Shown: positions 36,624 through 58,165 of the stretch, in pieces
Position numbering within the stretch: the first letter of the stretch is position 1
How the letters are laid out: each line of letters begins with the position of its first letter
Source: Balamuthia mandrillaris
Lineage: Eukaryota
Length of the DNA: 64,000 nt
Direction of reading: 5' to 3'
NCBI GenBank assembly: GCA_031835245.2
Contig: JAVKOQ020000112.1
Span: 62,001 to 126,000, forward strand
Made by a program: the position numbers and the translations under genes
The notes under the pieces: model-generated
The model's input: the letters and a program-made list of their open reading frames with translations, nothing else
What the model was told of the DNA's origin: nothing
The model's database searches: none

Positions 36624-36968
36624 TCAGAAACAACGAATTAGTCTTTTGGGTCAATGAGCATGTTTCCCGCCAAAACAACCCTTCATTCTCCCACGTCTGT
36701 GAGGGCAAAGCGGTTGGGGGGGGGGGGGTGAATGGAATGGTGCTCATGCTGATGCTGCCAATACACTTTTGTTGCTCGTCATTCGCCTTGACACTTTTCT
36801 GCTACTCGTTTTCTTTTCTTTTCTTTTTTTCTTTTCTTTTCTTTTCTTTTCTTTTCTTTTCTTTTCTTTTCTTTTCTTTTCTTTTCTTTTCTTTTCTTTT
36901 CTTTTCTTTTCTTTTCTTTTCTTTTCAAAAGTAAACACCCACGAAGCTCCACGCACCACCGTATTTCG
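36610..36968 (+). mobile_element. Degenerate fragment of the left end of the Fanzor element
   Basis: attagtcttttggg.caatgagcatgtttcccgccaaaacaaccc...gctccacgcaccaccgtatttc is shared with 43434-43710; it has an expanded (TTTTC)n. Confidence 0.85.
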
Positions 36969-37064
36969 GATTGCGGAAGAAGAAAACGAAGAGAGAAAAT
37001 AAAATACAAGGTACTTCAGAATAATTGACATTGGCTTTGTACATTCATCGTTCGTTGGAAAAAG

Positions 37065-42762: not shown

Positions 42763-43972
42763 AGTCCACAACCAGACTTGCGGCGGCTGGCCCAACTCTG
42801 CCCAAAGCCCACGTTGTTGACGTTATAGAAGGAGAACAGGTGGGTGATCAAGTTTCTTGCCAAGCTCGAGCTGTAAACAAGAGAGCTGCTTCTCTTCTGA
42901 GCTATCGTTTGCACTACCACTTGTGCAAACAAATTGCTGGAAGCCTTTGGGGGGGTTTGGCTTGTTGCAGTGGGAGGATAAAAGGCCGAAGAGGAAGGCC
43001 ACCAACGCTTGCCTTCTTCTTCTCGTTGTTGTTGTTGTTGTTGGGCTGTATGGAGGGGGGCTTCACAAGGGGCGGCGCTGAGTTTTTCGGAGACATGACC
43101 CCCCAACTAAATTTTTGATTTATTTTCAAGCCTGATTAAAACAAGTGTTGTGTGGGTGCCCGCCCGTTTGTGATGCTTGTGGTTGGGGAGTGGCCGTGGT
43201 TTTTGTTGTAGGAATAGTTTTCAATCACTCTCATCTTCACAGGGGGGAAGTGGTTCGCCATATCTTCTTTGTGCATGGGAATGGTTTCCCAATCCTCTCT
43301 TCTTCGCGTTGGGGCGCAATTCACAACATGCATGGGAATTATTTGTCCAGCCTCTTTTCATGAATTGACAGTGTCAAAATAAGGCGGCGCAAAGATCATA
43401 AGATCTAAGGACAACGAAAAAAGAAATCACGACATTAGTCTTTTGGGCCAATGAGCATGTTTCCCGCCAAAACAACCCTTCCTTCTCCCACGTCTCTGAA
43501 GGCAAAGTGGTAGGGTGGGTTGTGGGGTGGGGTGAATGGAATGGATGCTCATGCTGCTGCTGCCGCCAATAAACTTTTGGTACTCGTCAGTCGCCTTGAC
43601 ATTTTTCTGCTACTCGTTTTCTTTTCTTTTCTTCTCTTCTCTTCTTTTCTTTCTTTTCAAAAGTAAACACACAGACACACATCCACGCAGCTCCACGCAC
43701 CACCGTATTTCTCATTGCTACGCTTCTACTACACAAGGAGGAAACCAGCCGAAGGAGGCAGAGGTGGAAACCGAAGCGGTTCAGCCGCAGGCAGGGGCAC
43801 TGCTCCGATTGAAAAGGTAGCGTTCTTTTTTCTCTGCTCGCTCACTACATTTTTTGATGATGGAAACAAAATTTGTTACCAACCACTCACTAATGATTTC
43901 TTTTGTTTAAAAAAGAACAGCATCACGAACCTCTGTGCGCCTCTTCCACAACGCTGCTGGAAGCTGGCCTGA

Positions 43973-45716
43973 ATGGCAAGTTGCCCACAGTGCGGAAAAA
44001 AGTTTGCTACCTACCTCTCACGGGTTGGCCATCCACTTCGGTCGGGTTCACAAGGAAGGGGGTCGCGCCACTACTTCTGCTACTTCCACTGCTACTCGGA
44101 AAAGAAGAGCGGAAAACGCCCCAGCGGCACCTCAGGCAAGGGCACAGAAGCGTGGTAGGCCGCAGGCTGCACCTGCCCAGCCCTTTTGGAACCAGTTTTC
44201 CAGCGAAATCGGGAGAAGATTAATACGCCCGGAAGCCTTGTGCTTGGAAGAACCCTTTGCCTGTGGTTCAGGATGGTTCACCGCCTGCAAGCACATTCCT
44301 AACGGAGAAAAGGTGTTGGAGGAGGAGGAGAAGAAGAAGGAGAAGGAGAAGGAGGAAGAGGAAGAGGAAGAGGAGAAGGAGAAGGAGAAGGAGAAGGAAG
44401 AAGAGGAGAAAAACCAGAAAGGCTTGTTAGGCCTCATCGAGGGACTCGTTCCGTCTCGCCCAGCCGTACAGCTCACCAAAAAAGGCAAGAACGGAGAGGA
44501 GAAACCGGTAGTGGGGCGAGTGGAGAAGATCCGCCTTTATCCGCGCTCAGAACAAAAGAAGACGCTGGCCAAGTGGTTCGGCACAGTACGATGGACCTAC
44601 AACAAGGCCGTGGAGTTCCATCGTGAACATAAAGGAATGCCTCTTAAGGAGATGAAGGAACAAGTCAGGGAGAAATTCCTGAATAACGGCAATTTCAACG
44701 GAGAGGACAAGAGCCTTGCGTGGGTGTTGGAAACTCCTCGATACATTCGCAGTGACGCCGTCGATGATTTCTTCAACGGCGTGAAAACCAGCTTGGCGGC
44801 GGGCAGGACTGGATTCAAGATGAAGTTCCGTGGTCGGAAGGACAAGAGCCAGTCTCTCAGCATCCAAGCCAGGGAGTGGAACCACAGCAAGTCCATCCGC
44901 CAACTCCTCTTCGGGGAGGCGCGAATCAAAGCGAGGGACAAGAACTACAAAGTTCCGTCGGAGGTGCTCTATGCCGTTCGTCTGGTGAAAGACACTCGAC
45001 TGGGCCATTACTACCTCTGTGTGCCTCAGCCTTTGAAGCTCATGGGCGAGAGCCAAGCCCGTGAGCACCGAAGGAGAGAGGCAGGCATCATCGCCTTGGA
45101 TCCAGGAGTGCGCACATTCATGACCACCTACAACGGCTGCGGGGAGGTCACCGAGTGGGGCAAAGCGGATATCAACGAGATAGGCAAGCTGTGCCACCGC
45201 CTGGACCGCATGCAGAGTAAGGGCACCAAGGGCAACCACAGGCAACGGCGCCGTCTCCGAAGGGCCGCTGCTCGGCTTCGCCAGAGGATCCGCAACCTGG
45301 TGGATGACCTCCACAAAAAGCTCGTGTTTTGGTTGGTCAAGAACTTCTCCCTCATCCTTCTGCCAGAGTTCAGGAGCCAGCAGATGGTGCGGCGAGGCCA
45401 CCGCCGCATTGGCTCACGAACGGCCAGAGCCATGCTCACCTGGTCCCACTATCGCTTCAGGCAGAGGCTCCTCAACAGGGCCCAGCAATTTCCGTCCTGT
45501 ACGGTCTGCCTCTACGATGAGGAATACACTTCCAAGACCTGCGGCAAGTGCGGCCAAGTCCACCACCAGTTGGGGGGAAACAAGACCTTTCGGTGCCCCC
45601 AACCCGAGTGTGGCTACCAGGCCGATCGAGATGCCAACGCCGCCCGAAACATCTTGATCCGCTTTTTCACTTTACAAGCACTTACCACCTCCTCCTCCTC
45701 TGTGAGGGGGCGGTAG
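43973..45716 (+). CDS. Fanzor2 (IS607-TnpB-derived RNA-guided RuvC nuclease) with N-terminal C2H2 finger; +4 frameshift at 44007-44014
   Basis: PFWNQ, KIRLYPRSEQKKTLAKWFGTVRWTYN, RuvC-I IALDPGVRTF, LLPEF, DEEYTSKTCGKCG...CPQPECG, RuvC-III DRDANAARNI. ATG 43973 joins the long frame only if one CTAC copy is removed. Confidence 0.93.
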
Positions 45717-45792
45717 GCGGTAAGGTTGCTTTGGTGCCGGCACCGTTGCTTATAGCGAGTCGTAAGACAAGCCGTGATTAGGCACGCCGGAG
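45717..45792 (+). ncRNA. Putative Fanzor omegaRNA scaffold (5' end may overlap the ORF)
   Basis: Lies directly 3' of the ORF. Hairpins ggtgccggcacc (45733-44), ttgct-tat-agcga (45746-58), gtc-GTAA-gac (45759-68), cgtg-attagg-cacg (45773-86); gccgg (45786-90) is complementary to ccggc (45737-41). Confidence 0.6.
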
Positions 45793-45889
45793 GTGGGTTA
45801 TTTTTTGTGTCTGTTTTTTGTTTTCCTTTTACTAATTTTGCTTTATTTTCGTTGTCCCATTGATCGGCTTGATCTTGGCGCCGCCTTAG
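45793..45889 (+). other. Predicted 97-nt spliceosomal intron containing the element's right TIR
   Basis: AG|GTGGGT donor, U-rich body, ACTAAT and TTGAT branch-like motifs, no AG before the terminal TTAG. Its 3' part matches the RhoGEF intron at 57579-57693. Confidence 0.65.
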
Positions 45890-45909
45890 TCATTTTGACT
45901 GTCAAAATG

Positions 45910-48260
45910 TATTATTCAAAGAGAACAAGAGGTCTGCCAAAGAAGAGCTCGAAGGGTTTGGAGTCTGAGCGACGGGATATTCACTGATTTAAGGCGAATT
46001 GTGCGATGGGGGAGGAAGGTAGACCAGGTCCGAGGTCACCTTTAAGGGATTTCAGAAGCATGGATTTGGTGAGCTTGACGTGGCTTTCTGCAGCTCTGTT
46101 GGCTCGCGGGTGGCACGAAGAGATGAACCGATGGTCGAAACTTGCCTGGTCACGTACCGCGGACATGAATTGGTTGACAAATTCAGTGCCGTTGTCAGAC
46201 TGGACTATTTTGGGGAAGCCGAGCTCGCAGATAACCTTGACAAACTCGCGGGAGACTGCGGATTTGTCCTTAAGAGGGCGGAGAATCGTAAAGCGAGTGG
46301 CGATGTCCGTGATGCTGAAGATGTACGTGAGGGAGCCGGGAGTTGGCTGTCATCGAGTTCATTTTTGGGCTTTGGGGTCAGAGTTTTGGCGTTCTGAGGA
46401 ACTTGAGGAACATTCAGCGGTGCGTTGCTGAGGATGGAAGGGGAGTACAACCGTGAAAGGGAGTCCTCTAAGATGTGGTGAATTCCAGGCCGGTGGAAAA
46501 CCTCGAAGTCGGAATGGAAAATCACGAGAGCCCAGTGTGCAAGCACGCTATTGAGGTCTTTCGCGTTGAAAAGATGCACAAGGGGTCTGTGGTCGGTGTA
46601 GAGTAAGAAACGTCGGCCGATTAGGTAATACCAGATTACAGTGGAATCTGCGGGGGGCGAAGATGAAAGCAAGCAGCTCTCTTTTGATGGAAGGATGATT
46701 GCGTTGAGCGGGGTTAAGAGCCTTGCTGGCGAAAGAGAGTAGCTACGTTTGCCGTTATCGTCTTCTTGGAAAGTACAGGACCAACACCGTGCTGAGAAGC
46801 GTCGGTGCCAACACGAAAGGGTTTGTCCCAATCTGGTGCGCTTAGAATGGTTGGACTGGAGATGACGCGCTTGAAAGTATTGAGTGATCTGGTGAAGACC
46901 AAGATGTCGTCCACATGGTGGGAAGAGATATCGATCAGGAGGCGGAGGGCGGCTGCGATGAAGCGGGACATGACAGCCTGAACGTGCTTGACGCCGAAAG
47001 GTGCGCCCACGAGTCGTACGCCATACCATGTGAAGGTAAGTTTTTTCTGATGCGGTGGATAAACCAGGATTTGGTTGTAGGACCAGACGAGGTCCAAGAG
47101 GGTAGCCCATTTGAGGCCTAGAGCTCGTTCGATGAGAACCTTGGTGTCCTCGATCGGGTACTCGTCGTCGGCGAGGAGAGAGTTAATGCCGCCAGACGGT
47201 GATGTCTGCGCTTGGCTAGAGTTGAGTGCTGCAGGCTGGCGGGGTTTACACTGATGACCAGGATGCCAGGGCGCTGAGCACTTTGCTTTTGGGTGCTGTC
47301 TCATCAGCTTTATGCGTTTACATTCGGCTGCTGAGTGTCCGGATGTGGGGTGAAGAGCGCAGCTGGTGCTAGAGGGAGCCTTGTGCGCGTAGAGATTAGC
47401 TTCGACGCTAAGGGCTATCTGCACAGCTTCATCGTACTTCTCTGCGTTCCGCGAGAGCAGTACGTTGCTGACTGATTCCAGGAGACAAGGGTTGAGGCAG
47501 CGTTTCAGCGCGGCTGTCTTTCTGGGCTTCAGACGGCTGCTCAACCATCTGTTGAAGGATGTTGTCAATCCTCTCGATGACCTTTCTCACCGGTTCCTTG
47601 GGTCGGTGAGTCAGCTTGAATAAGTCGTCATGGAGACGGGTTTGAGTTCCGCGCTGCCGAAGGGGGTGGCGTAGACGTCTCTGGCCTGATGCCATGGCAA
47701 GCGAGGTATAACTATGTTGTTTTGCACCCAGCTGGAAGCGGTCTTAGACCCTTGTGTGTACTTTGCTAGGGCCATGTTCCACATGTTGGAGATGCAGGTT
47801 GACAATCTGAAGGTTGTTCTCCAGTTGCCGAAGGAAGGGTTCCGGGTCGCCGTCACGTTCAGGGTTGTAAGCGGGAAGACCAGTCGGAATCTTAGAGGAA
47901 AACGAAGGAGAGTCCGGAGAGGTAGGTCGTGCCGAAGGGGAGAATAACGCTCTGTAAATGATAGATCAGCTGCACGGTAGGGGGTGTCCGCTACACAGGG
48001 TGTACTGTCGAGAAGAGGCTCTCTTCGCCTTTGACCTTTTCGGGCTCGGTGTGTTGTTGCCGTTGGGCTAAGGCCACTTGGTTGAGCTCTATGCGCTCCA
48101 GGCGGTCTGCTATTTTGTTCACGATGCGGGTGTTTCGAGACAAAGACGGACTCGTCTGTGCTTAAGGAGGGCATCAACAGCTTCTACGAGGTAGGAGATG
48201 TTGGAGGTTTGAAGCTCGAGGCTGTCGAGCCGTTTGGAGGGGTATTGGGGGTCTTTCTGC
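45910..48260 (-). mobile_element. Decayed, internally deleted Ty3/Gypsy LTR retrotransposon
   Basis: Gag-like region; RT fragments LDL..YNQI and HVDDILVF; RNase H FRVGTDASQHGVG and FLLYTDHRPL; integrase VQSDNGTEF and HPRAN. Frameshifted; no LTRs identified; boundaries approximate. Confidence 0.85.
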
Positions 48261-48316
48261 TCCACTTGTTTTGTTTTTGTTTTTGTTTTTTCTTTTTGCA
48301 CTTGACATGCAACAGA

Positions 48317-50650
48317 ATGGAGGGAGAGTGCGCCCCGCTCCTTATCAATTATCCAGTAACCCTGTTAGAGTTTCTGCAAACCCTGCCCATCGAGACTGGA
48401 ACAAGGTCAATACTCTGTTACAATCCGCCCGGCTTTCCCTGCACCGCGAGGGGCAAAACCTTGGCAGCTATTTATAGCGCTTTTGCGAAACGACTCGACG
48501 CAAGGAACAACGCCGGTGCGGCTTCAGATGATCGCAGGGCAAACGCGCTACCATGCTTGCAGGCCTCTCCTGGTGGCGGCAAATCTTTTTTATTGGATGA
48601 GTTGGCAGCACTGAAGAAAACCGACTTGGAGCTCTGCGAGAGCACTACGATGAGAGAAATTCTCCTCCAAAGCGTCGCCATCTCGATAACCTTCAACAGC
48701 AGTTCGACGCTCGAGTCTGAGGTGGAGAAAGACCTGGACCCCGTGGTGACTCGTGTGCTATGGGCCTACTTCTTTAGCACAAAAAAGATGAGCTTCCCCA
48801 CCTTTTGCCAGGCACTCTTCGCCAAGTATGCCGAAACGGCAAACACCTTTACGCTGGAAACCGCCTTGGCTTGCATTCGTCTGCACCTCGCCTCTGCCGC
48901 GAGTCCTTCATCTTCTGCTACTCTCCCCTCCACACCCATTCTCCTTTGTGTTGACGAGCTGTTGAAGGTGTCCTCCGCCCCACAGCCCGACATAAATGAT
49001 CCACAAGTCGCAAAAGCTCTCTCCTCTATTGGCAAACAGTTAAACCGCGACCCCTACTTCAACGTTGTGGTATCAACTCTTGATTCAGGACCTGTGTTGG
49101 TGGAACAAACCCGCTCTGGAAGGCCAATCACTTGGATACCCTTGCCCCCTCTCACACTGAAGGACTCCCTTTTGCTATTCAAGCCCATTCTGGACAACGA
49201 GGAGGACATGCGGGCCAAGGTCAACATAGCGCTTGCCATATCCGAGTGTGGTGGTCATCCTCGTTCATTGGAAAGCCTGTGGCTTGTTCTGCATGATCCT
49301 CCAAACAGTCGGTATTTTTCATTCCCAGAGCTGGTATCGCTGGTGATAGACCGCATGCTGTTGGTCATTTTCCCCATGCAAGCCCTACAGATCGCTCTGC
49401 TTGGTATTCCTTTTCCCCTCGACACGCCAATCGAGTCTGGGCCGCACAGCACGTTGCCTCGCACAATCCGTTCAGAGATAGCCTCTGGCCTATTTCTGAA
49501 CGCTTTGGAATCTGCTGGAGAGACTGTTGCTATCATTCCACGCCTTTCCCCCCTCCGCTTACGTCAGTATGCAAAATTTGGTACTCGGGATGACCTGAAC
49601 AAGTGTCTGGCCAGCATGCTGGCAACTGAAACGAACTTTAGTGGTTTAACATTCGAGCATTTTCATGCTTGGTGGGAAGTACTGCGACGTCTGCTCCTTC
49701 TCAACTCAACCTCACTGTTGGCTGCAGCAACCTTCCATGAGGACAGGCCAGTTCAACTTGGGCAACTCTACAACATCAATTCCGACGTGGAGTTCCTCTT
49801 CCGGAAAAAGAAAGGGGTGATGCAGTTACGTAACCATTTCCCTTGCACCACTGCTTCTGCCGTGTTTGCTGCAGACGGAAAGGAACTCTCCCTCAAGGAC
49901 CTGACGAGCTATGTGCTCATGCCAGCTACAGGCAACCCTGGGTTTGACATTACCCTAATTGAACAAAAGCCTGACAACCGGGGCTACATTGTTATCAACA
50001 TTGAGTGCCGATATTCTCATCCTACCTCTGGGACACAGCTCACAACATCAGAACTGGAGCGGAAGTGGGAGCTCATGCAACAACAGTTTCAGCCCCTCTT
50101 CACTAGGTCTTATGGACAAAAACCAAAGGAACTGTATAACATGCAACTGAAACTGGAGGATGTTTACTTGGTGGTTTGTGCCATTCGCCAGTCTGCCCTG
50201 GTGTTACCAGATTCATTGCCACAGTTGCTTGTGCTGGGCCGTGAGAAACTCCAAGAACTGTACTCGCCTACCCTAGCAATGCGATCACAATTCCTCTCAG
50301 GTCCAGAGTGGGAATCACTTATGCATGCTGCAGCCCTAACAACGGAAAGCAGCCTTGGGCAGGGAGAGAAATATGATGAAGCAGAGCTTAGTAAGTTGCG
50401 TATCAAGGATCTGAAAAAAATCCTGGCAAAGGATGGCCACAAGACAAGCTTTAAAAGAAAAGCTGACTATGTGTGTTTTATCATTCAACATTGCTATAAG
50501 CCCAAGCCAGAACCTATTAAAAGAAAACGGTCTTTATCACCTGTTGAGGAAGAAGAAGAAAAAGAAAAAAAGCAAGAAAAAGCAACAAAAGCAAAAGATA
50601 TCAAGGGAAAAGAAAAACAAAGTCAATATAAAAAACCAAAGAGTAAATAA
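48317..50650 (+). CDS. Crinkler/RHS-type effector-like protein: P-loop NTPase + restriction-endonuclease-like domain + C-terminal HeH/SAP-like motif
   Basis: Walker A SPGGGKS, Walker B ILLCVDE, GGHPRSL, NPGFD...IECRYS, LSKLRIKDLKKIL...KRKADYV. ATG 48317 follows a polypyrimidine tract and CAG, so an upstream exon is possible. Confidence 0.72.
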   Translation: MEGECAPLLINYPVTLLEFLQTLPIETGTRSILCYNPPGFPCTARGKTLAAIYSAFAKRLDARNNAGAASDDRRANALPCLQASPGGGKSFLLDELAALKKTDLELCESTTMREILLQSVAISITFNSSSTLESEVEKDLDPVVTRVLWAYFFSTKKMSFPTFCQALFAKYAETANTFTLETALACIRLHLASAASPSSSATLPSTPILLCVDELLKVSSAPQPDINDPQVAKALSSIGKQLNRDPYFNVVVSTLDSGPVLVEQTRSGRPITWIPLPPLTLKDSLLLFKPILDNEEDMRAKVNIALAISECGGHPRSLESLWLVLHDPPNSRYFSFPELVSLVIDRMLLVIFPMQALQIALLGIPFPLDTPIESGPHSTLPRTIRSEIASGLFLNALESAGETVAIIPRLSPLRLRQYAKFGTRDDLNKCLASMLATETNFSGLTFEHFHAWWEVLRRLLLLNSTSLLAAATFHEDRPVQLGQLYNINSDVEFLFRKKKGVMQLRNHFPCTTASAVFAADGKELSLKDLTSYVLMPATGNPGFDITLIEQKPDNRGYIVINIECRYSHPTSGTQLTTSELERKWELMQQQFQPLFTRSYGQKPKELYNMQLKLEDVYLVVCAIRQSALVLPDSLPQLLVLGREKLQELYSPTLAMRSQFLSGPEWESLMHAAALTTESSLGQGEKYDEAELSKLRIKDLKKILAKDGHKTSFKRKADYVCFIIQHCYKPKPEPIKRKRSLSPVEEEEEKEKKQEKATKAKDIKGKEKQSQYKKPKSK

Positions 50651-51170: not shown

Positions 51171-51285
51171 TGTTGAAGGGGATAAACTTTGCAGATCAAG
51201 AAAGAGACTCTGGGTTTATTCATAAGAGGTATGGACCAAGTGTGTGCTTTGAGTGTGTCATGAGGAAAAAGGGAAAATAAGAGAA
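51171..51285 (-). repeat. Degenerate partial copy of the 200-bp LTR
   Basis: Reverse complement matches the 3' part of 56203-56402 (gcagatcaagaaag..gactctgggtttattca..ggaccaa.gtgtgtgctttga). Confidence 0.8.
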
Positions 51286-51676: not shown

Positions 51677-52615
51677 AGTAGTAGTAGTAGTAATAAAAAG
51701 TTTATTTGCTCTGAGAGCAACACCAATCTATACATAAAAAGTAAGCCTTGTACATACATAGTGTACTCCTTACTTCTCTTAATCCCTCATCCTCAATGCC
51801 TTCCCAATTGTAATTCAAATACACAAGTGGAAGGTGTTGAATGAGATTTCAGACTAACTTTGTATCATCTAGCTATCCTTTTCTTTCCCTTTCCTTACTT
51901 CTCTTTTCCTTGCTATTACATTACTTCCAAAGATTGATAAAATGAAGAAGCTTCCATGCTTCCAACTTACTCTTGCTGCCCATAATCTCCAGACTCGTTT
52001 ACAACTTTGCTTACATTGTTCCATCTCTTGAGCTCTGTTACATTTCTTTCCACTTGACAGGAGCTTTGTTGTACAGGCTTCAATAATCAGCTTTCTGACT
52101 TGTTCTTCACTTCCATTGTCCACACTCCAGATTCTAAAGCGATCTTCCCAAAGGTTAGGACACCTTAACAGGAAGTGTTCTGCTGTTTCTTCCTCAGCAT
52201 CACATGCAGGGCACTTGCTATCCACCTCAGACTGCTGAATGGATCCCCACTTTTTTCCAATAGGCAGTCCCCCACAGCGAATAGCATTCATCAAACGTTC
52301 TTTCCTTGGGTTGGTAATCACTAAGCTCCGTTGTTGTCCAACCAAACATCTTCCATTTGTCAAGAAGTTATGCCATAGCCATGCTCTTGTTCCTCTTTCT
52401 CCTTCAGCTGCATACTCCATCTTGGCTACTCGAGTTAAGGCCCTCATCCTCTTGGCTTTCTTTTCAACAACTGTCGTTCCGTCACCTCCCTCACCTTCAT
52501 TCTTCTCCCCTTCCTCTTCACTTGCTTGGCTTACCTCTTCAAGTAGCTCAAAGTGGCCATCTTGCCTCTCAGCATGATGAATTACTGCTTGTCTTTCCAA
52601 CTCACACATGGGTCA
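51677..52615 (-). mobile_element. 5'-truncated non-LTR retrotransposon (LINE) 3' end
   Basis: zf-RVT-type CPACDAEEETAEHFLLRCP, 3' UTR, AATAAA and (TAC)n tail. Confidence 0.85.
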
Positions 52616-53573
52616 TACTAATTTGAGAGAACAACCAGGAGTAAAGACAAAGGAAATGAACAGAATTTTTGTAAACAAAACCCACTGCTTTGAATGATAA
52701 AATTATACTACTTTTCTATCAATCCTTATTTCTCCTTGTATAATATATTAAAGTCAGCAGGGACTGTTTTGTTTCAGGTTCACAAAGGGCAAGTTTGGCA
52801 GCCAAAGCCAGGAGCTAGCCTAGAAGGACAGTGTTGATAAAAGAACAGAATTAACAAATATAGTCTACAACACCCATTGTCTACTAAGAGTGTTAATAAA
52901 GTTTTACATAAAAAGAAAAGTCAAGGTCATGCTTGACTCCTGTGTCATTAATAGCTTTATTTGACAAATGCATTTACCCAGAGAAGTGAGGATAAGGAGC
53001 TTACAAAATAGAGATATATGGAGAAGTGCTACTGATCATGAGGTTAACTGAATGTCACTCTTTGTTTTAGATGTATTTGTAAGAATAAATATTGGACAGA
53101 AAGCATGGCTTTTAAAGCTGGCCCATACAAGAATGTCTTTTGCTACAAGCTTCTTGAGCAAGGAGGTATAAAACTTATAAATGTACCAACCTAAGGAAAA
53201 AGAGTTGATGATATGACAAGAAGTGTATTCAAGAGAATAGAGAAAGGGAAAAGAGAAAGAGAAAAAAAAGACATAAGAATATACCATTAAGCACAAGGAA
53301 CCTTAATAATTGTTGGTGAATTTACCAACACTTTGTGAAGTGTCCTGCAAATGTGTGTTGAACACATAGTATTTAACAATGGAATAAGTCCTGTACAAAG
53401 CAAGGTCAATGTAATGCAAGTTTGTACAGATTGTTTACACTGTACTACTAAAAAGCAACTATAAAGCTTTATTGGATTTGCACTAAGTAGTAATACTACT
53501 ACTACTACTACTACAAGTTTATTCATCATTGCACTAAGATGGTAAAACCTTGCACTAATTACACAAGCTTGAA

Positions 53574-54143
53574 AAAAAGTGGGGATCCATTCAGCAGTCT
53601 GAGGTGGATAGCAAGTGCCCTGCATGTGATGCTGAGGAAGAAACAGCAGAACACTTCCTGTTAAGGTGTCCTAACCTTTGGGAAGATCGCTTTAGAATCT
53701 GGAGTGTGGACAATGGAAGTGAAGAACAAGTCAGAAAGCTGATTATTGAAGACTGTACAACAAAGCTCCTGTCAAGTGGAAAGAAATGTAACAGAGCTCA
53801 AGAGATGGAACAATGTAAGCAAAGTTGTAAACGAGTCTGGAGATTATGGGCAGCAAGAGCAAGTTGGAAGCATGGAAGTTCTTCTGCATTTTATCAGTCT
53901 TTGGAAGTAATGTAAGCAAGGAAAAGAGGAAAAAGGAAAGGGAAAGAAAAGGATAGCTAGATGATACAAAGTTGGTCTGAAATCTCATTCAACACCTTTC
54001 ACTTGTGAATTGAGTAACAATTGGGAAGGCATTGAGGATGAGGGAGTAAGAAAAGTAAGAGTACACTATGTATGTACAAGGCTTACTTTTTATGTATAGA
54101 TTGGTGTTGCTCTCAGAGCAAATAAACTTTTTATTACTACTAC
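53574..54143 (+). mobile_element. Second 5'-truncated LINE copy with a 14-bp target-site duplication
   Basis: Near-identical inverted copy of 51677-52258; TSD tacacaagcttgaa at 53560-73 and 54144-57; (TAC)n tail. Confidence 0.9.
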
Positions 54144-54181
54144 TACACAAGCTTGAAGTTTGAGCTAAGTTGTATTTGATG

Positions 54182-55020
54182 CTATAATAAGTTCTTCTTT
54201 AACCCCAGTTCTGGAAGAGGCTTGGTGAGGAAGTCAGCAATGTTGTCTTTTGAGGGACAATAGATAAATTCGATGTATTCTTTGATAGTCTTCTTGTTGA
54301 TGAAGTGGTTTGTTGAGTTGATGGGTGAAGATAGAAACAGTGGGTTCTTTTTGCTTTTTGTTGATTGGTAGTACCCACTAAAGTCTCCATGATCATCCAT
54401 TTTGTATGGATAATTATCTGCTTCAGTAATAAAAGAAAGAGTAGTTAATGATAACGTAGGAGAGGTAAATGAAGTTAGAAATAACAGGTTGATTTGGTCA
54501 ACTTTGAAGTCATCTAGGATGCTAGTTTTCTCCTCTTGTTCCATTGTGCTCCTGGTGTTGTCCTCTTGGTCATTAGAGACTTGAGGGGTAAAGAACGGAC
54601 TTTCTTTGTCTTTATCATCCTCAGGATCAATCCATGGTTCAGGTTTTTGAGAGTAATCAATCTGATTTCCTTATCCTAGATACCAATGAGAACTCTATCA
54701 ACGGTTTTGGGGTCCATTTTACATTATTGCTATTTAGGTACCCAGATGTGTGCTCTGCTGTCATTAACTTGAAAGTAACTAAGGTGTGGCCTTTTTCTGG
54801 TCCACTTTTCTTCAGGAGTGAAATTCTGAGTTCCAACATGATTTGTGATGTAGATAGTATAGAAGAGAGCTTTGACTTAGAAGTTGATAGAAAGCTTTGC
54901 ATAATAGAGCATGCTTCTAGCACAGTCAAGTAGCATGTAGTTTATGCATTCTACAACACCATTTTGCTCTGGTGAGTAACAAGTGGTGAGTTGATGTCAA
55001 ATGTATGGCTTTTGTTTCCA
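54182..55020 (-). mobile_element. Ty1/Copia remnant (integrase fragment to RNase H C-terminus)
   Basis: HQLTTCYSPEQNGVVE and IEFIYCPSKDNIADFLTKPL; heavily deleted. Confidence 0.75.
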
Positions 55021-55169
55021 AGTAAAGCACTCTTTAAGTAGTAATATAGGTAAAATTCAGGCTGATTATGTTTGTAACTATTGACATACTTAACTATTTA
55101 ACATATATTCTATCTTCCTTGGGACCTTTCTGGCCTAAACTACACAACTAAAAAAACACAGAAGCCACT

Positions 55170-55369
55170 TGTTGGAAAACCAACCATTATGAGTTCTTGT
55201 TGATACTCTCCCTAATACCTCCAAATTTTCTCACCCTTTTTATTTTCCCCTTTTCCTCATGACACATTCAAAGCACATCCCTTGGTCTACACCCCTTTTC
55301 TTGTGAATAAAGCCAGAGTCGCTTATGTGCCATCCCTTTCTTGATCTGCAGGGTTATTCCCCATCAACC
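55170..55369 (+). repeat. Solo LTR (200 bp), CpG-decayed, flanked by CACT
   Basis: TGTTGGAAAA...CCCCATCAAC(C); cact at 55166-69 and 55370-73; homologous to 56203-56402. Confidence 0.85.
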
Positions 55370-55685: not shown

Positions 55686-56202
55686 ACCTATGCATTGACC
55701 AGTAACTATGATAGGATGCCTAATTAACTGCTTATTAGTTGTATTGATTGTATCTAGTTAGCAAAATGCCAGGAGCTAGCTCATTCAAATTCTTACTTTT
55801 TCTCTTTCTTATTAAAATGAATTGTATACTCCATTAGTTTCATAACTTGTAAAATCTCTCTTAAGGGAAAAAAGAAAGGTCAAAAAGAAACAGCAAATTC
55901 TTTTGCAAACCAACTCTACTTCATGAAAACATACCTACCACTACTTTAAAACATAATAAAGCCAAAAGCAATATCAACAGTCTATATTCATAACACATTG
56001 AACAACCTTGCTCAAGCTAAGAGTATTAAAGTTTTTTATATAATCATTTCATTATTATGAAGATAAGTTTACAAAGCAAGGGACATTGACAAGCAGAAAA
56101 TCATTCAAAAAGATAACCTTTAATGTATAATAAAACATTTTAGGAGTAGTAATGGTAATAAGATGTTTATTTATAGACTTTTAGATAAATTATTAAAATA
56201 TT

Positions 56203-56402
56203 TGTTGGAAAACCAACTATTATGACTTCTTGTCGACACTCTCCCCGATACCTCCAAATTTTCTCGCCCTTTTTATTTTCCCCTTTTCCTCGCGACACAT
56301 TCAAAGCACACACTTTGGTCCACACCCCTTTTCTTGTGAATAAACCCAGAGTCGCTTACGTGCCGTCCCTTTCTTGATCCGCAGGGTTATTCCCCATCAA
56401 CA
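56203..56402 (+). repeat. Solo LTR (200 bp), CpGs intact, flanked by TATT
   Basis: TGTTG...CAACA termini, internal AATAAA, tatt at 56199-202 and 56403-06. Confidence 0.88.
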
Positions 56403-56422: not shown

Positions 56423-58165
56423 TTATAATTTTAATGTATATCTTCGTATTAAATTTGTTTTTTCTTTTTGTTTTCCTATTTTTGAATCATCTTTTACAAG
56501 TTTTGTTTTTTGAATGGTTTCATTTTGTGGAATAATATCCACAAAATGATAATTATTTTTTTTAGCTTTTTTTTGAAGTAATGGAAGAATATCATATTTC
56601 AATTCTTGTAAAGCACTTTGAACATTATTATCTTTAACATTAATAATAAATGTAGTATTTACTTCTTTGTTATTACTTTCTTTGCTTTTAAGAGTCAATA
56701 TGGCACCTATTTAAAGTATAATTAATATTTTAAAACAAATGTTATAGAAATTTACCTTGATTTAAATCATATAAATTCAGTTCCACATTAGTTATAGGAG
56801 CATATGCTATTAATTGCCAAGAAAACGGAGCCTGAAAAAAACTTAAAAAAAAAGAACTACTTGATTGTCTATTTTTTGAATAAAAAAACATAAATAATAA
56901 AATGAGTTTTGTTTTTGTGAATAAAACATATTAAATAAACATAAAATGATTTACCTTTCTTGTGCTAATACTAAAACATCTGTAAATAGAAAAAAAGCCA
57001 AAACCACGGGAACAATTAAAAGATTTGAGGCATTTGATTCTTTACATTCAAACTGTCCTTCTGTTATCAATAATCGTTGGTCATTAGAGAAAAAGTCCTA
57101 ATTATAAGAATTTAGTTCATTAGTTCTTATTTGTTAGTAATGAATTCAAATAAGTACCAAGGGCTCAGCAAAATGGCTTTGAAGGTCTAACATTTGCTGT
57201 TTTACTTCTGCCATTCGTTTTTGTTCATTAATGTATGCAGTGACTTGTTTCATTTCTTTAACAGCCTTTTTAAGGTTTTTGTAGTCTCGGTGCTGTTTTG
57301 TTGTCTTTTTCAAAAGCTCTTGAAGTAAGAGCACGTATCTAAAAACGAAGTACTGATGAGACAAGCAAAGCAAAAATAAGATTGAAAGGAGGAAAGAGAA
57401 AGATAGAGTGAGATGATATTGTGATGCTAAAACCTTGGCAAACGTTGTATTGGCATTATAAGGTAGTTTGACAAACCCAGAACCGCATGTTCACGGTGAA
57501 CCCCTTCTAAAAAGCGGATGACCTTCTTTCGCTTTTGGCATTCCACCAAGGTTTTAATTGAGAGGTCATAGTTGTTCACTAAGGCGGTACCAAGATCAAG
57601 CCGATCAATGGAACAACGAAAATAAAGCAAAATAAGTATGGGGAAAAGGCAGAAAAAAAACAACAGCAACACTAAAAAAAAAATGTTTCATACCATATGA
57701 GGTATACACTTTAAAGCTGTCTACCTGTAGTTGATAAAGCACAAGTGGGTCAGCAGCACAGATGGTTTTGTTTGCAGAGCTTCGCACCTGTGCCAAAAAT
57801 ATATCCGCCAGCTTAGTTTTCTCAGTCCAGTCGCTGTAACGCTCGTTAAGCTTTGACAAGAAGCTACTGTGAAGAGCGAAAATGTCCTTAATTGTAGAAA
57901 AAATGGCAGTAACTTCAGACTCGCTTAGGATAGGACTACGGTCGTTAGAAAGACTATGCAGCAAGGGCTCAAAAAAGACATTGATTGCAAGATCAAGGCT
58001 CTGGACGTAACTTTCCTCAGTGGTTACGATTTCCCGAGCAATTTCGTTCCTTGTTCTGTTCAACTTCTCTGATTAACGGAGACAATTGTCAACTAAGAGA
58101 ACTGAAGGTAAACAGTAATCCTCGCCGGCGGTACCTTTGTCTAGCTTAGCGTGATGTTGGCCCAT
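56423..58165 (-). CDS. RhoGEF (DH-PH) protein with MG start, multi-exon; 3' exons not fully resolved
   Basis: RNEIAREIVTTEESYVQSL, FKVYTSY|VNNYD, LSNYLIMPIQRLPR|YVLLLQELLKKT, PH motif FFLFTDVLVLA. Confidence 0.85.

Follow-up and report, generated by a model that had tools for sequence, protein, structure and literature searches.

The occurrence of Fanzor2 genes inside transposons with terminal inverted repeats (TIRs) is already a published concept: Yoon et al. (2023, PMC10711439) described them, as Fanzor2*, from cut-and-paste transposons of molluscs and of Chloropicon primus. Here we analyse a stretch of 64,000 nt of Balamuthia mandrillaris DNA (the window, in whose numbering all positions of the element are given), which is eukaryotic in character and rich in introns, and in which positions 43380-45889 are a multi-copy, transposase-less TIR transposon carrying a Fanzor2 gene. 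As far as the published description goes, this element shares with Fanzor2* the RuvC fingerprint (DPG and a shifted Glu), the TIRs, short ends that look duplicated and the lack of the IS607 transposase TnpA, and it differs in belonging to a new host group, the Amoebozoa; that it is an amoebozoan newcomer to Fanzor2* in its general build is near certain. It also appears to differ in construction. In the published model the TIR and the target-site duplication (TSD) are part of the guide-RNA scaffold, whereas in Balamuthia an old IS607 end seems to lie inside the element, with an intron-like segment between it and the flank.

The protein, and a predicted pseudoknotted scaffold ending in N-G, are also those of IS607-type Fanzor2 and pro-Fanzor elements (ApmFz2, PDB 9b0l; ACa-1 and ACa-2 of Acanthamoeba; cyanobacterial pro-Fanzors); unlike these, the Balamuthia element lacks TnpA, has true terminal inverted repeats and spliceosomal introns, and its protein has a C2H2-pattern N-terminus where theirs has the part overprinted on TnpA. 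IStrons (IS607 or IS605 elements with a group I intron; PMC10690162) are reported to use the transposon right end both as 3' splice site and as a part of guide-RNA biogenesis, which is the likeness of interest; however, IStrons self-splice the whole element and their splicing competes with the omegaRNA (PMC10690162), whereas in Balamuthia a short spliceosomal intron would take out the TIR only, and the guide would arise through splicing. Introners (intron-generating TIR transposons; PMC12130899) are similar in that a transposon end encodes or co-opts a splice site; in Balamuthia this site would be completed by bases of the target, and one host intron ends where the element does. By contrast, the Balamuthia element is not wholly a GT-AG intron and encodes an RNA-guided nuclease, and the available main text on introners mentions neither Fanzor nor TnpB. 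Finally, the Fanzor1 element SPu-1 of Spizellomyces, in the accessible accounts (PMC3627910, PMC10432273), likewise has a single Fanzor gene, TIRs, a putative TA TSD, a conserved flank on one side and no transposase found; it differs in being a Fanzor1 without pseudoknot, and in a conserved flank that is CA on the left rather than G on the right. The reading that we put forward, and to which we would give an even chance, is that an IS607 Fanzor2 was captured by a TIR transposon with its bacterial-type scaffold unchanged, the whole right TIR being placed in a spliceosomal intron, and that the duplicated TA together with the target base after it completes the acceptor of this intron. Such an arrangement would resolve the conflict between an end that the transposase binds and the guide. 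This end may also take over host intron acceptors, as in a neighbouring RhoGEF gene, which would make the family a partial introner.

The ends of the element form an inverted repeat of 19 nt at 95% identity (arms 43380-43398 and 45870-45888), extending to about 60 columns once gaps are allowed, a score reached by none of 3000 random pairs of 80-mers from the window; the imperfect TIRs reported in the initial annotation, which was made from the sequence alone, are thus real. By repeat search the left, imperfect TIR occupies 43382..43439 on the plus strand and the right TIR 45831..45886 on the minus strand. That the element is multi-copy, as had been presumed, is seen in its relatives: the nearest homologues of the Fanzor2 gene come from Balamuthia mandrillaris itself (93% and 79% identical), 12 homologous Balamuthia mandrillaris proteins lie on 12 different contigs, and contigs from four runs (four studies) span the element and break off at both its ends. 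The window holds two extra pieces of it, a right end at 57578-57681 and, on the plus strand, a 5'-region fragment without ends at 36626..36974, which in a self-comparison of the window is 81-87% identical to 43422-43718. Summed contig depth inside the element rises more than 100-fold in run X1 and less in the other three runs, a figure that is not usable as a copy number. Also in X1, a joint from 45889 to 43380 places two copies head-to-tail, 18 nt apart, and together with many internal-deletion joints it shows MITE-like (miniature inverted-repeat) derivatives.

Across copies TA is found at both ends, on the left at 43380..43381 (plus strand; a putative target-site duplication, or target bases preceding an AG core). 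The left flank is variable: six X1 contigs turn unlike before 43380, and the base preceding the TA is A in this copy and G at the tandem joint in X1. The right flank begins with a fixed G. Among the pieces listed at the right end, 16 of 18 extend to at least 45889, two end earlier (45876, 45883) and none stops at 45887 or 45888. Among the matches listed, loose ends lie behind 45889 in 6, 3 and 1 contigs of X1, X14 and X15 and behind 45890 in 5, 5 and 1, with three each behind 45891 and 45894 and none behind 45887 or 45888, some of the contigs so counted being the RhoGEF locus; variant right ends are loose behind 45882 in two contigs and four reads, and in the X21 reads the variant keeps the closing TTAG. 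The end common to the copies is therefore TTAG. Its TA and invariant G (45887..45889, plus strand) are the conserved right boundary, known from contig ends, and a predicted 3' splice site. The TA at both ends (43380-81 and 45887-88) and the shared TIR termini described in the initial annotation hold across copies, and only its right boundary has to move, by one base, to G45889.

Three alternative descriptions of the ends were rejected: a 3-bp TSD of PIF/Harbinger type, for which TAA on the left and TTA on the right are inverted rather than direct; a TAG duplication, as the left end reads TAA; and an extension of the TIRs into the flanking palindromes, as contigs from other copies part from this one at 43380 and beyond 45889. 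The flanks at 43366-43379 and 45891-45909 are related short palindromes, and the right one also occurs 18 nt behind a right end in X15, which would point to a target neighbourhood that recurs or to this locus in a different lineage.

The Fanzor2 gene (43973..45716, plus strand) would encode an N-terminal C2H2-pattern finger and basic tract followed by WED, REC, RuvC and ZnF parts, and it is frameshifted in this copy. It is the single nuclease gene that had been annotated: one long open frame, 43935-45716, matches PF12323, PF01385 and PF07282, and NCBIfam guided_TnpB above the cut-off. The catalytic motifs are found at 45093 (ALDPG), 45357 (LLPEF), 45516 (DEEYTSKTC), 45540-45611 (C4 ribbon) and 45624 (DRD). 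Alignment, with a profile for the ribbon, places on the plus strand the RuvC-I Asp at 45099..45101, a Pro at the canonical RuvC-II position at 45363..45365, the shifted RuvC-II Glu at 45519..45521 and the C4 zinc ribbon with the RuvC-III Asp (RD) at 45540..45632. The D, P, shifted E and D are invariant in 39 aligned sequences and align with D324/E467/D501 of ApmFz2 (numbering from PMC11832414). In protein numbering, the clade of Fanzors and pro-Fanzors, as defined by DPG and a shifted E (PMC10711439), is recognised by D211-P212-G213, invariant in the same 39 sequences, and by E351, which aligns with ApmFz2 E467 six residues before the zinc finger, the canonical site being taken by P299. The best solved relative is the mimivirus Fanzor2 (ApmFz2, 9b0l) both by sequence (E 4.6e-27) and by fold (rank 1, E 4e-19, TM 0.68, for a model with a predicted local distance difference test score of 87), with SpuFz1 at rank 34. 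Judged by its sequence and modelled fold, with TnpB-like size, an HTH_OrfB_IS605 domain and a place among IS607 Fanzor2 proteins, the protein is a Fanzor2, and the identity proposed in the initial annotation stands.

We place the start at ATG 43973, where the related proteins P0002 and P0126 begin with a C2H2-pattern finger. The pattern was judged by eye; atlas neighbours of the protein include zf-C2H2 clusters at 0.89-0.91, and Pfam gives no C2H2 match. Another relative, P0010, has a Cys-rich N-terminal region with a weak tesmin CXC domain match (E 0.008), which may be another gained N-terminus of DNA-binding type. In the present copy, comparison with other copies reveals four extra bases, a tandem duplication at 44007..44010 (plus strand), that break the frame after codon 13 and leave a 61-aa peptide. 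They are missing in P0002 and P0126, and the form without them is the majority in all four runs (4508/5678, 699/699, 125/136 and 93/104 depth units). The next in-frame ATG, at 44637, lies downstream of the HTH match, and the upstream exon holds a stop in the same frame. Thus the RuvC site is as intact as was claimed, yet the gene around it is broken and this copy is likely a pseudogene; many annotated copies are also truncated or frameshifted. Upstream of the start, a GT-AG intron at 43817..43920 (plus strand) is absent from an X3 contig of depth 95 and is present in the P0001 gene model, and NCBI gene models imply an additional intron at 43580-43674 (plus strand). The dominant X3 contig (depth 699) omits 86 nt, 43845-43930, with ends CT..AC: either a deletion or a minus-strand GT-AG intron, in which case there would possibly be an antisense spliced transcript of the family.

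Where did this Fanzor2 come from? Among loci with 750 nt or more available upstream, its relatives lie beside an IS607 TnpA in 72 of 73 from genomes, 46 of 54 from metagenomes and 48 of 69 from viruses; six of six such open reading frames (ORFs) checked were Resolvase with MerR or HTH_17, and NF033518 matched. In two related copies (L161:195-620 and L163:385-825) the TnpA frames end after about 145 residues, within the resolvase domain, through either a shared frameshift or programmed frameshifting. Phylogenies, which had been suggested as a check, were built with FastTree (158 rows, from 266 full-length rows of 301, reduced for redundancy) and IQ-TREE (53 rows), and both place the protein on a long branch inside a mostly TnpA-bearing clade, with support 96 (74-row clade, FastTree) and 99 (42-row clade, IQ-TREE), its sister group differing between the two. 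The relatives and both trees thus bear out the IS607 ancestry that had been proposed. Because the nearest relatives in these trees, which are built without mollusc, Chloropicon or Fanzor1 proteins, are IS607 loci, the capture was probably separate from that of mollusc and algal Fanzor2*. No TnpA was found in the element or the window with a profile of 129 relatives' TnpA in six unspliced frames, the best score being 3.9 bits on a Glu/Lys tract, and the element is indeed without a transposase of its own. As to a partner, a search for fused Fanzor-transposases gave 11 longer proteins, none of them named Balamuthia, and is weak evidence; proteins sharing the 5' 145 residues are family members only, with no partner transposase among them; and the element termini have no element-like match in 238 related loci.

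A sign of capture is an IS607 right end that appears to have been kept inside the right TIR. Relatives share a 3' pattern of a hairpin, then a hairpin with a 3-bp stem whose loop pairs with five bases which, with a 2-nt tail, close the element. In 24 sequences the stem pairs of the small hairpin covary (94% paired; 0 of 500 shuffles). After three of the 24 rows had been dropped as too short, the complement of the loop 5-mer was found downstream in 17 of 21 relatives' loci against 77 of 390 swapped loops (20%), and followed by N-G in 16 of 21 against 21 of 390 (5%). Moreover, in three pairs of related copies identity ends at the tail or 1-3 nt after it. The corresponding omegaRNA scaffold is predicted on the plus strand at 45676..45792 and is of IS607 type, with a long hairpin, a small hairpin (45733-45744), two or three hairpins, the pseudoknot partner (45786-45790) and the tail AG (45791-45792), which would be the old IS607 right end. 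An unguided alignment puts 45733-45744 in register with the relatives' small hairpin, the loop complement occurs once, at 45786-45790 and followed by AG, and the pairing is present in the minimum-energy fold (scaffold z -2.31, 3 of 200 shuffles). A descriptor of the pattern finds 11 of 21 clade loci (6 of 27 being too short) and a single site in the window, 45733-45792, against a background of 5 of 2000 shuffles and 4 of 1500 window tiles. A search of Rfam gave a single chance match (E 0.63). The Fanzor2 hallmark of a pseudoknotted omegaRNA at the 3' end is thus present by prediction; the likely end of the scaffold is 45792, which lies 97 nt within the element, and we regard it as very probable that the IS607 right end is retained there. 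With that old end surviving inside the right TIR, the case for the capture that the initial annotation had proposed is stronger than could be known from it. RNA-guided cleavage of DNA next to a target-adjacent motif (TAM) would be a further Fanzor2 trait, this copy itself being frameshifted.

A scaffold ending 97 nt inside the element poses a problem, since read straight on it would have a constant guide. How could the guide then come from the flanking DNA? The intervening 97 nt (45793..45889, plus strand) have the sequence features of a U2 spliceosomal intron, GT...TTAG with 70% pyrimidine, branch-like motifs 17, 26 and 54 nt from the end and a sole AG as the last two bases, and they hold the right TIR, the TA and the fixed G. 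Their length is near the mean of 113 nt given for Balamuthia introns (the accessible part of bioRxiv 10.1101/2025.02.25.640156). The donor, GAG|GTGGGT at 45793, agrees with the general splice consensus at 7 of 9 positions and is the best of 17 GTs in the 3' region; 2.6% of the GTs in the window score 7/9, AG|GTRNG follows 0.6% of its AGs, and a GT directly follows the scaffold tail in 1 of 16 relatives. The transcript of the element has at least one other spliceosomal intron, at 43817-43920. If 45793-45889 were removed, the flank would directly follow the scaffold tail, as in the IS607 relatives, and the G would be fixed because the splice acceptor needs it; both the fixed G and the variant end that still closes TTAG fit an acceptor. 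We consider it an even call, from sequence features, whether the 97 nt with the right TIR are spliced out and the scaffold so joined to flanking DNA as its guide.

A host gene in the same window bears on this acceptor. Homology and an exon profile identify an intron of 115 nt in a RhoGEF gene (57579..57693, minus strand) that is homologous to 45793-45889: the two are identical at 56 of 60 positions at the 3' end, and their low-complexity 5' halves align too (9 of 5000 shuffles). The exons around it match PF00621 at 1-80 and 93-142 and join in frame through a 31-nt exon, and the only other AG of the intron lies near its donor, from which we infer that the acceptor in use is the element's TTAG. 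The simplest history would be that the element inserted at the TAG of an acceptor already present and that its body was lost afterwards. Elsewhere, several long contigs match just the last 40-55 nt of the right end; these are possibly more introns ending in this TIR.

The data establish the TIRs, the many copies, the lack of TnpA, the Fanzor2 RuvC site and the nesting among TnpA-bearing IS607 relatives, and it is well supported that an IS607 Fanzor2 bearing a right end of its own (pseudoknot partner and AG) was taken up into a TIR element and that TnpA was lost. Beyond this, we suggest that the transcript reads through the right end, that GAG|GT at 45793 and TTAG at 45889 serve the spliceosome as donor and acceptor, and that the guide would then be the DNA following the G. 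A cut-and-paste transposase that duplicates TA would move the element in trans; an insertion would complete the acceptor and give a usable guide only where a G comes after the TA, and the TAM would end in TAG. If TnpB biology is a guide, intact copies would cut vacated sites and the element would be restored by gene conversion. The present copy, likely dead as a source of protein, could still supply guide RNA and move.

Several points weigh against this reading. A spliced junction from 45792 to the flank was not seen in the contigs of the four runs or in the X21 reads, although neither comparison was set up for it and most matches were not listed. In X3, five contigs run past 45889 without being spliced, and the six matches listed for it include no loose end of several contigs at 45792, although contigs with a short overlap may escape such a comparison; X3 shows the 5' intron removed and may itself be RNA, although it is listed as 'DNA?'. 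The ten X21 RNA reads that cover the right end show no splicing, in a compared stretch that does not contain the donor. The absence of other AGs from the 97 nt is helped by their low A content; the descriptor and donor tests were framed after the window had been seen, which makes their rates optimistic; and under a covariance model of 24 relatives the window hairpin scores 3.6 bits (E 5.7, rank 8 of 17), which is not significant. With a TAM of TAG only, the right junction (TTAG and a guide match) would be a self-target, so that either a longer TAM is required or something is missing from the model. A 7-bp helix of the terminal TIR with the stop-codon region offers another structure. No partner transposase, fused or sharing the N-terminus, emerged from the protein searches, and no empty-site joint was seen in contigs or reads (15 of 54 joints shown in one comparison, none in the other), so that the TA duplication and Tc1/mariner-like partner of the initial annotation stay putative.

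The same scaffold evidence (loop complement and descriptor) would serve an account without splicing, in which the scaffold ends at 45792 and the G/U-rich sequence that follows it, from 45793 on, is itself the guide, internal and fixed. The nuclease would then have one constant target, such as a parental TIR element lacking the IS607 insert, or be a fading passenger. The unspliced contigs and reads, and the many broken gene copies, speak for such a frozen guide. Yet it leaves the fixed G, the donor exactly after the tail and the RhoGEF intron unexplained, and a 14-nt internal guide has one match elsewhere in the window, with two mismatches at 54340 and in no evident context; we think it unlikely.

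The other doubtful alternative, to which we give a similarly low weight, concerns the mobilisation step alone and is compatible with splicing: an IS607 serine recombinase acting in trans, with an AG crossover core at both ends and a target TAAG, without duplication. A symmetric TA-targeting transposase is not expected to leave a fixed G on one side only, the target choice of Tc1/mariner being symmetric. AG lies in direct orientation at both junctions (TA-AG on the left, TT-AG on the right), the old internal end has an AG tail too, and the TTAG end fits TA duplication at TAG targets as well as an IS607-like AG core at TAAG targets. TnpA accompanies most relatives, as counted above, and an AAG TAM would spare both TAG and GAG from self-cutting. 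Inverted repeats by themselves do not settle the mode of mobilisation, because some viral IS607 relatives have subterminal ones of 20-32 nt, as is stated for ApmFNuc too (PMC10530073, in the accessible text). On the other hand, the closest TnpA-bearing pairs have no terminal inverted repeat, and a repeat running through the very ends, TA included, would be partly coincidence. Intron acceptors read YAG, and an insertion at one fits TAG better than TAAG. Because the repeat reaches the very ends and the IS607 end proper sits 97 nt inside, we favour TA duplication by a DDE enzyme as the somewhat probable mode over the recombinase.

Least probable, and in our view improbable, is an unspliced omegaRNA re-scaffolded as in published Fanzor2*, where the TIR and TSD are predicted to lie within the scaffold (Yoon et al. 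2023, PMC10711439): 45880-45886 would pair with 45715-45721 at the stop codon, TA and G would join the scaffold and the guide would be flanking DNA, and this 7-bp helix does appear in the minimum-energy fold of RNAs beginning at 45690 or 45712, but the fold (45690-45905) is not better than shuffles (z -1.02, 26 of 200), the helix competes with the long first hairpin, and the pseudoknot would lie about 100 nt from the guide, unlike in all relatives examined.

The element adjoins on its right a decayed multi-copy piece of a long terminal repeat (LTR) retrotransposon with RT_RNaseH matches (about 45927-47600, minus strand). Further on lie an intronless 830-aa ORF with a P-loop-like motif and no confident Pfam match (48158-50650), and an inverted repeat (51681-54146; arms of about 580 nt, 92-100% complementary, with a 1.3-kb spacer) that has an ORF with a weak zf-RVT match in one arm and is either a foldback of a retroelement piece or an assembly artefact. 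A 200-nt direct repeat (55169-55368 and 56202-56401; 92%, 1033 nt apart), with a third, inverted copy at 51172-51280, possibly represents the LTRs of a decayed element.

We found no literature that joins Balamuthia and Fanzor, in a search to which subscription papers, Repbase and the supplements of bioRxiv 10.1101/2025.02.25.640156 were external. Balamuthia is absent from the supplements of PMC10711439, PMC10530073 and PMC10432273 (one scanned file of the last excepted), and this blank is weak for PMC10530073, whose supplement tables are also without Acanthamoeba castellanii. Nor did we find a spliceosomally spliced Fanzor guide in IStron papers, reviews and a Fanzor survey preprint, judged partly by title or abstract; the available text of one review (PMC13565253) does not contain 'spliceosom'. 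A Fanzor2* family in an amoebozoan is thus apparently unreported, and would be so even without a spliced guide.

More generally, how Fanzors switch transposon families yet keep a programmable guide is an open question, for which the solution published so far is to recode the TIR and TSD into the scaffold (PMC10711439, in its accessible part). If our proposal is true, spliceosomal restoration of the guide would be a second solution, available to eukaryotes only, and the choice of target site (TA then G) would be tied to splicing. The element would then represent an intermediate stage of capture that retains the old IS607 end, and it would link Fanzor elements to intron turnover in host genes.

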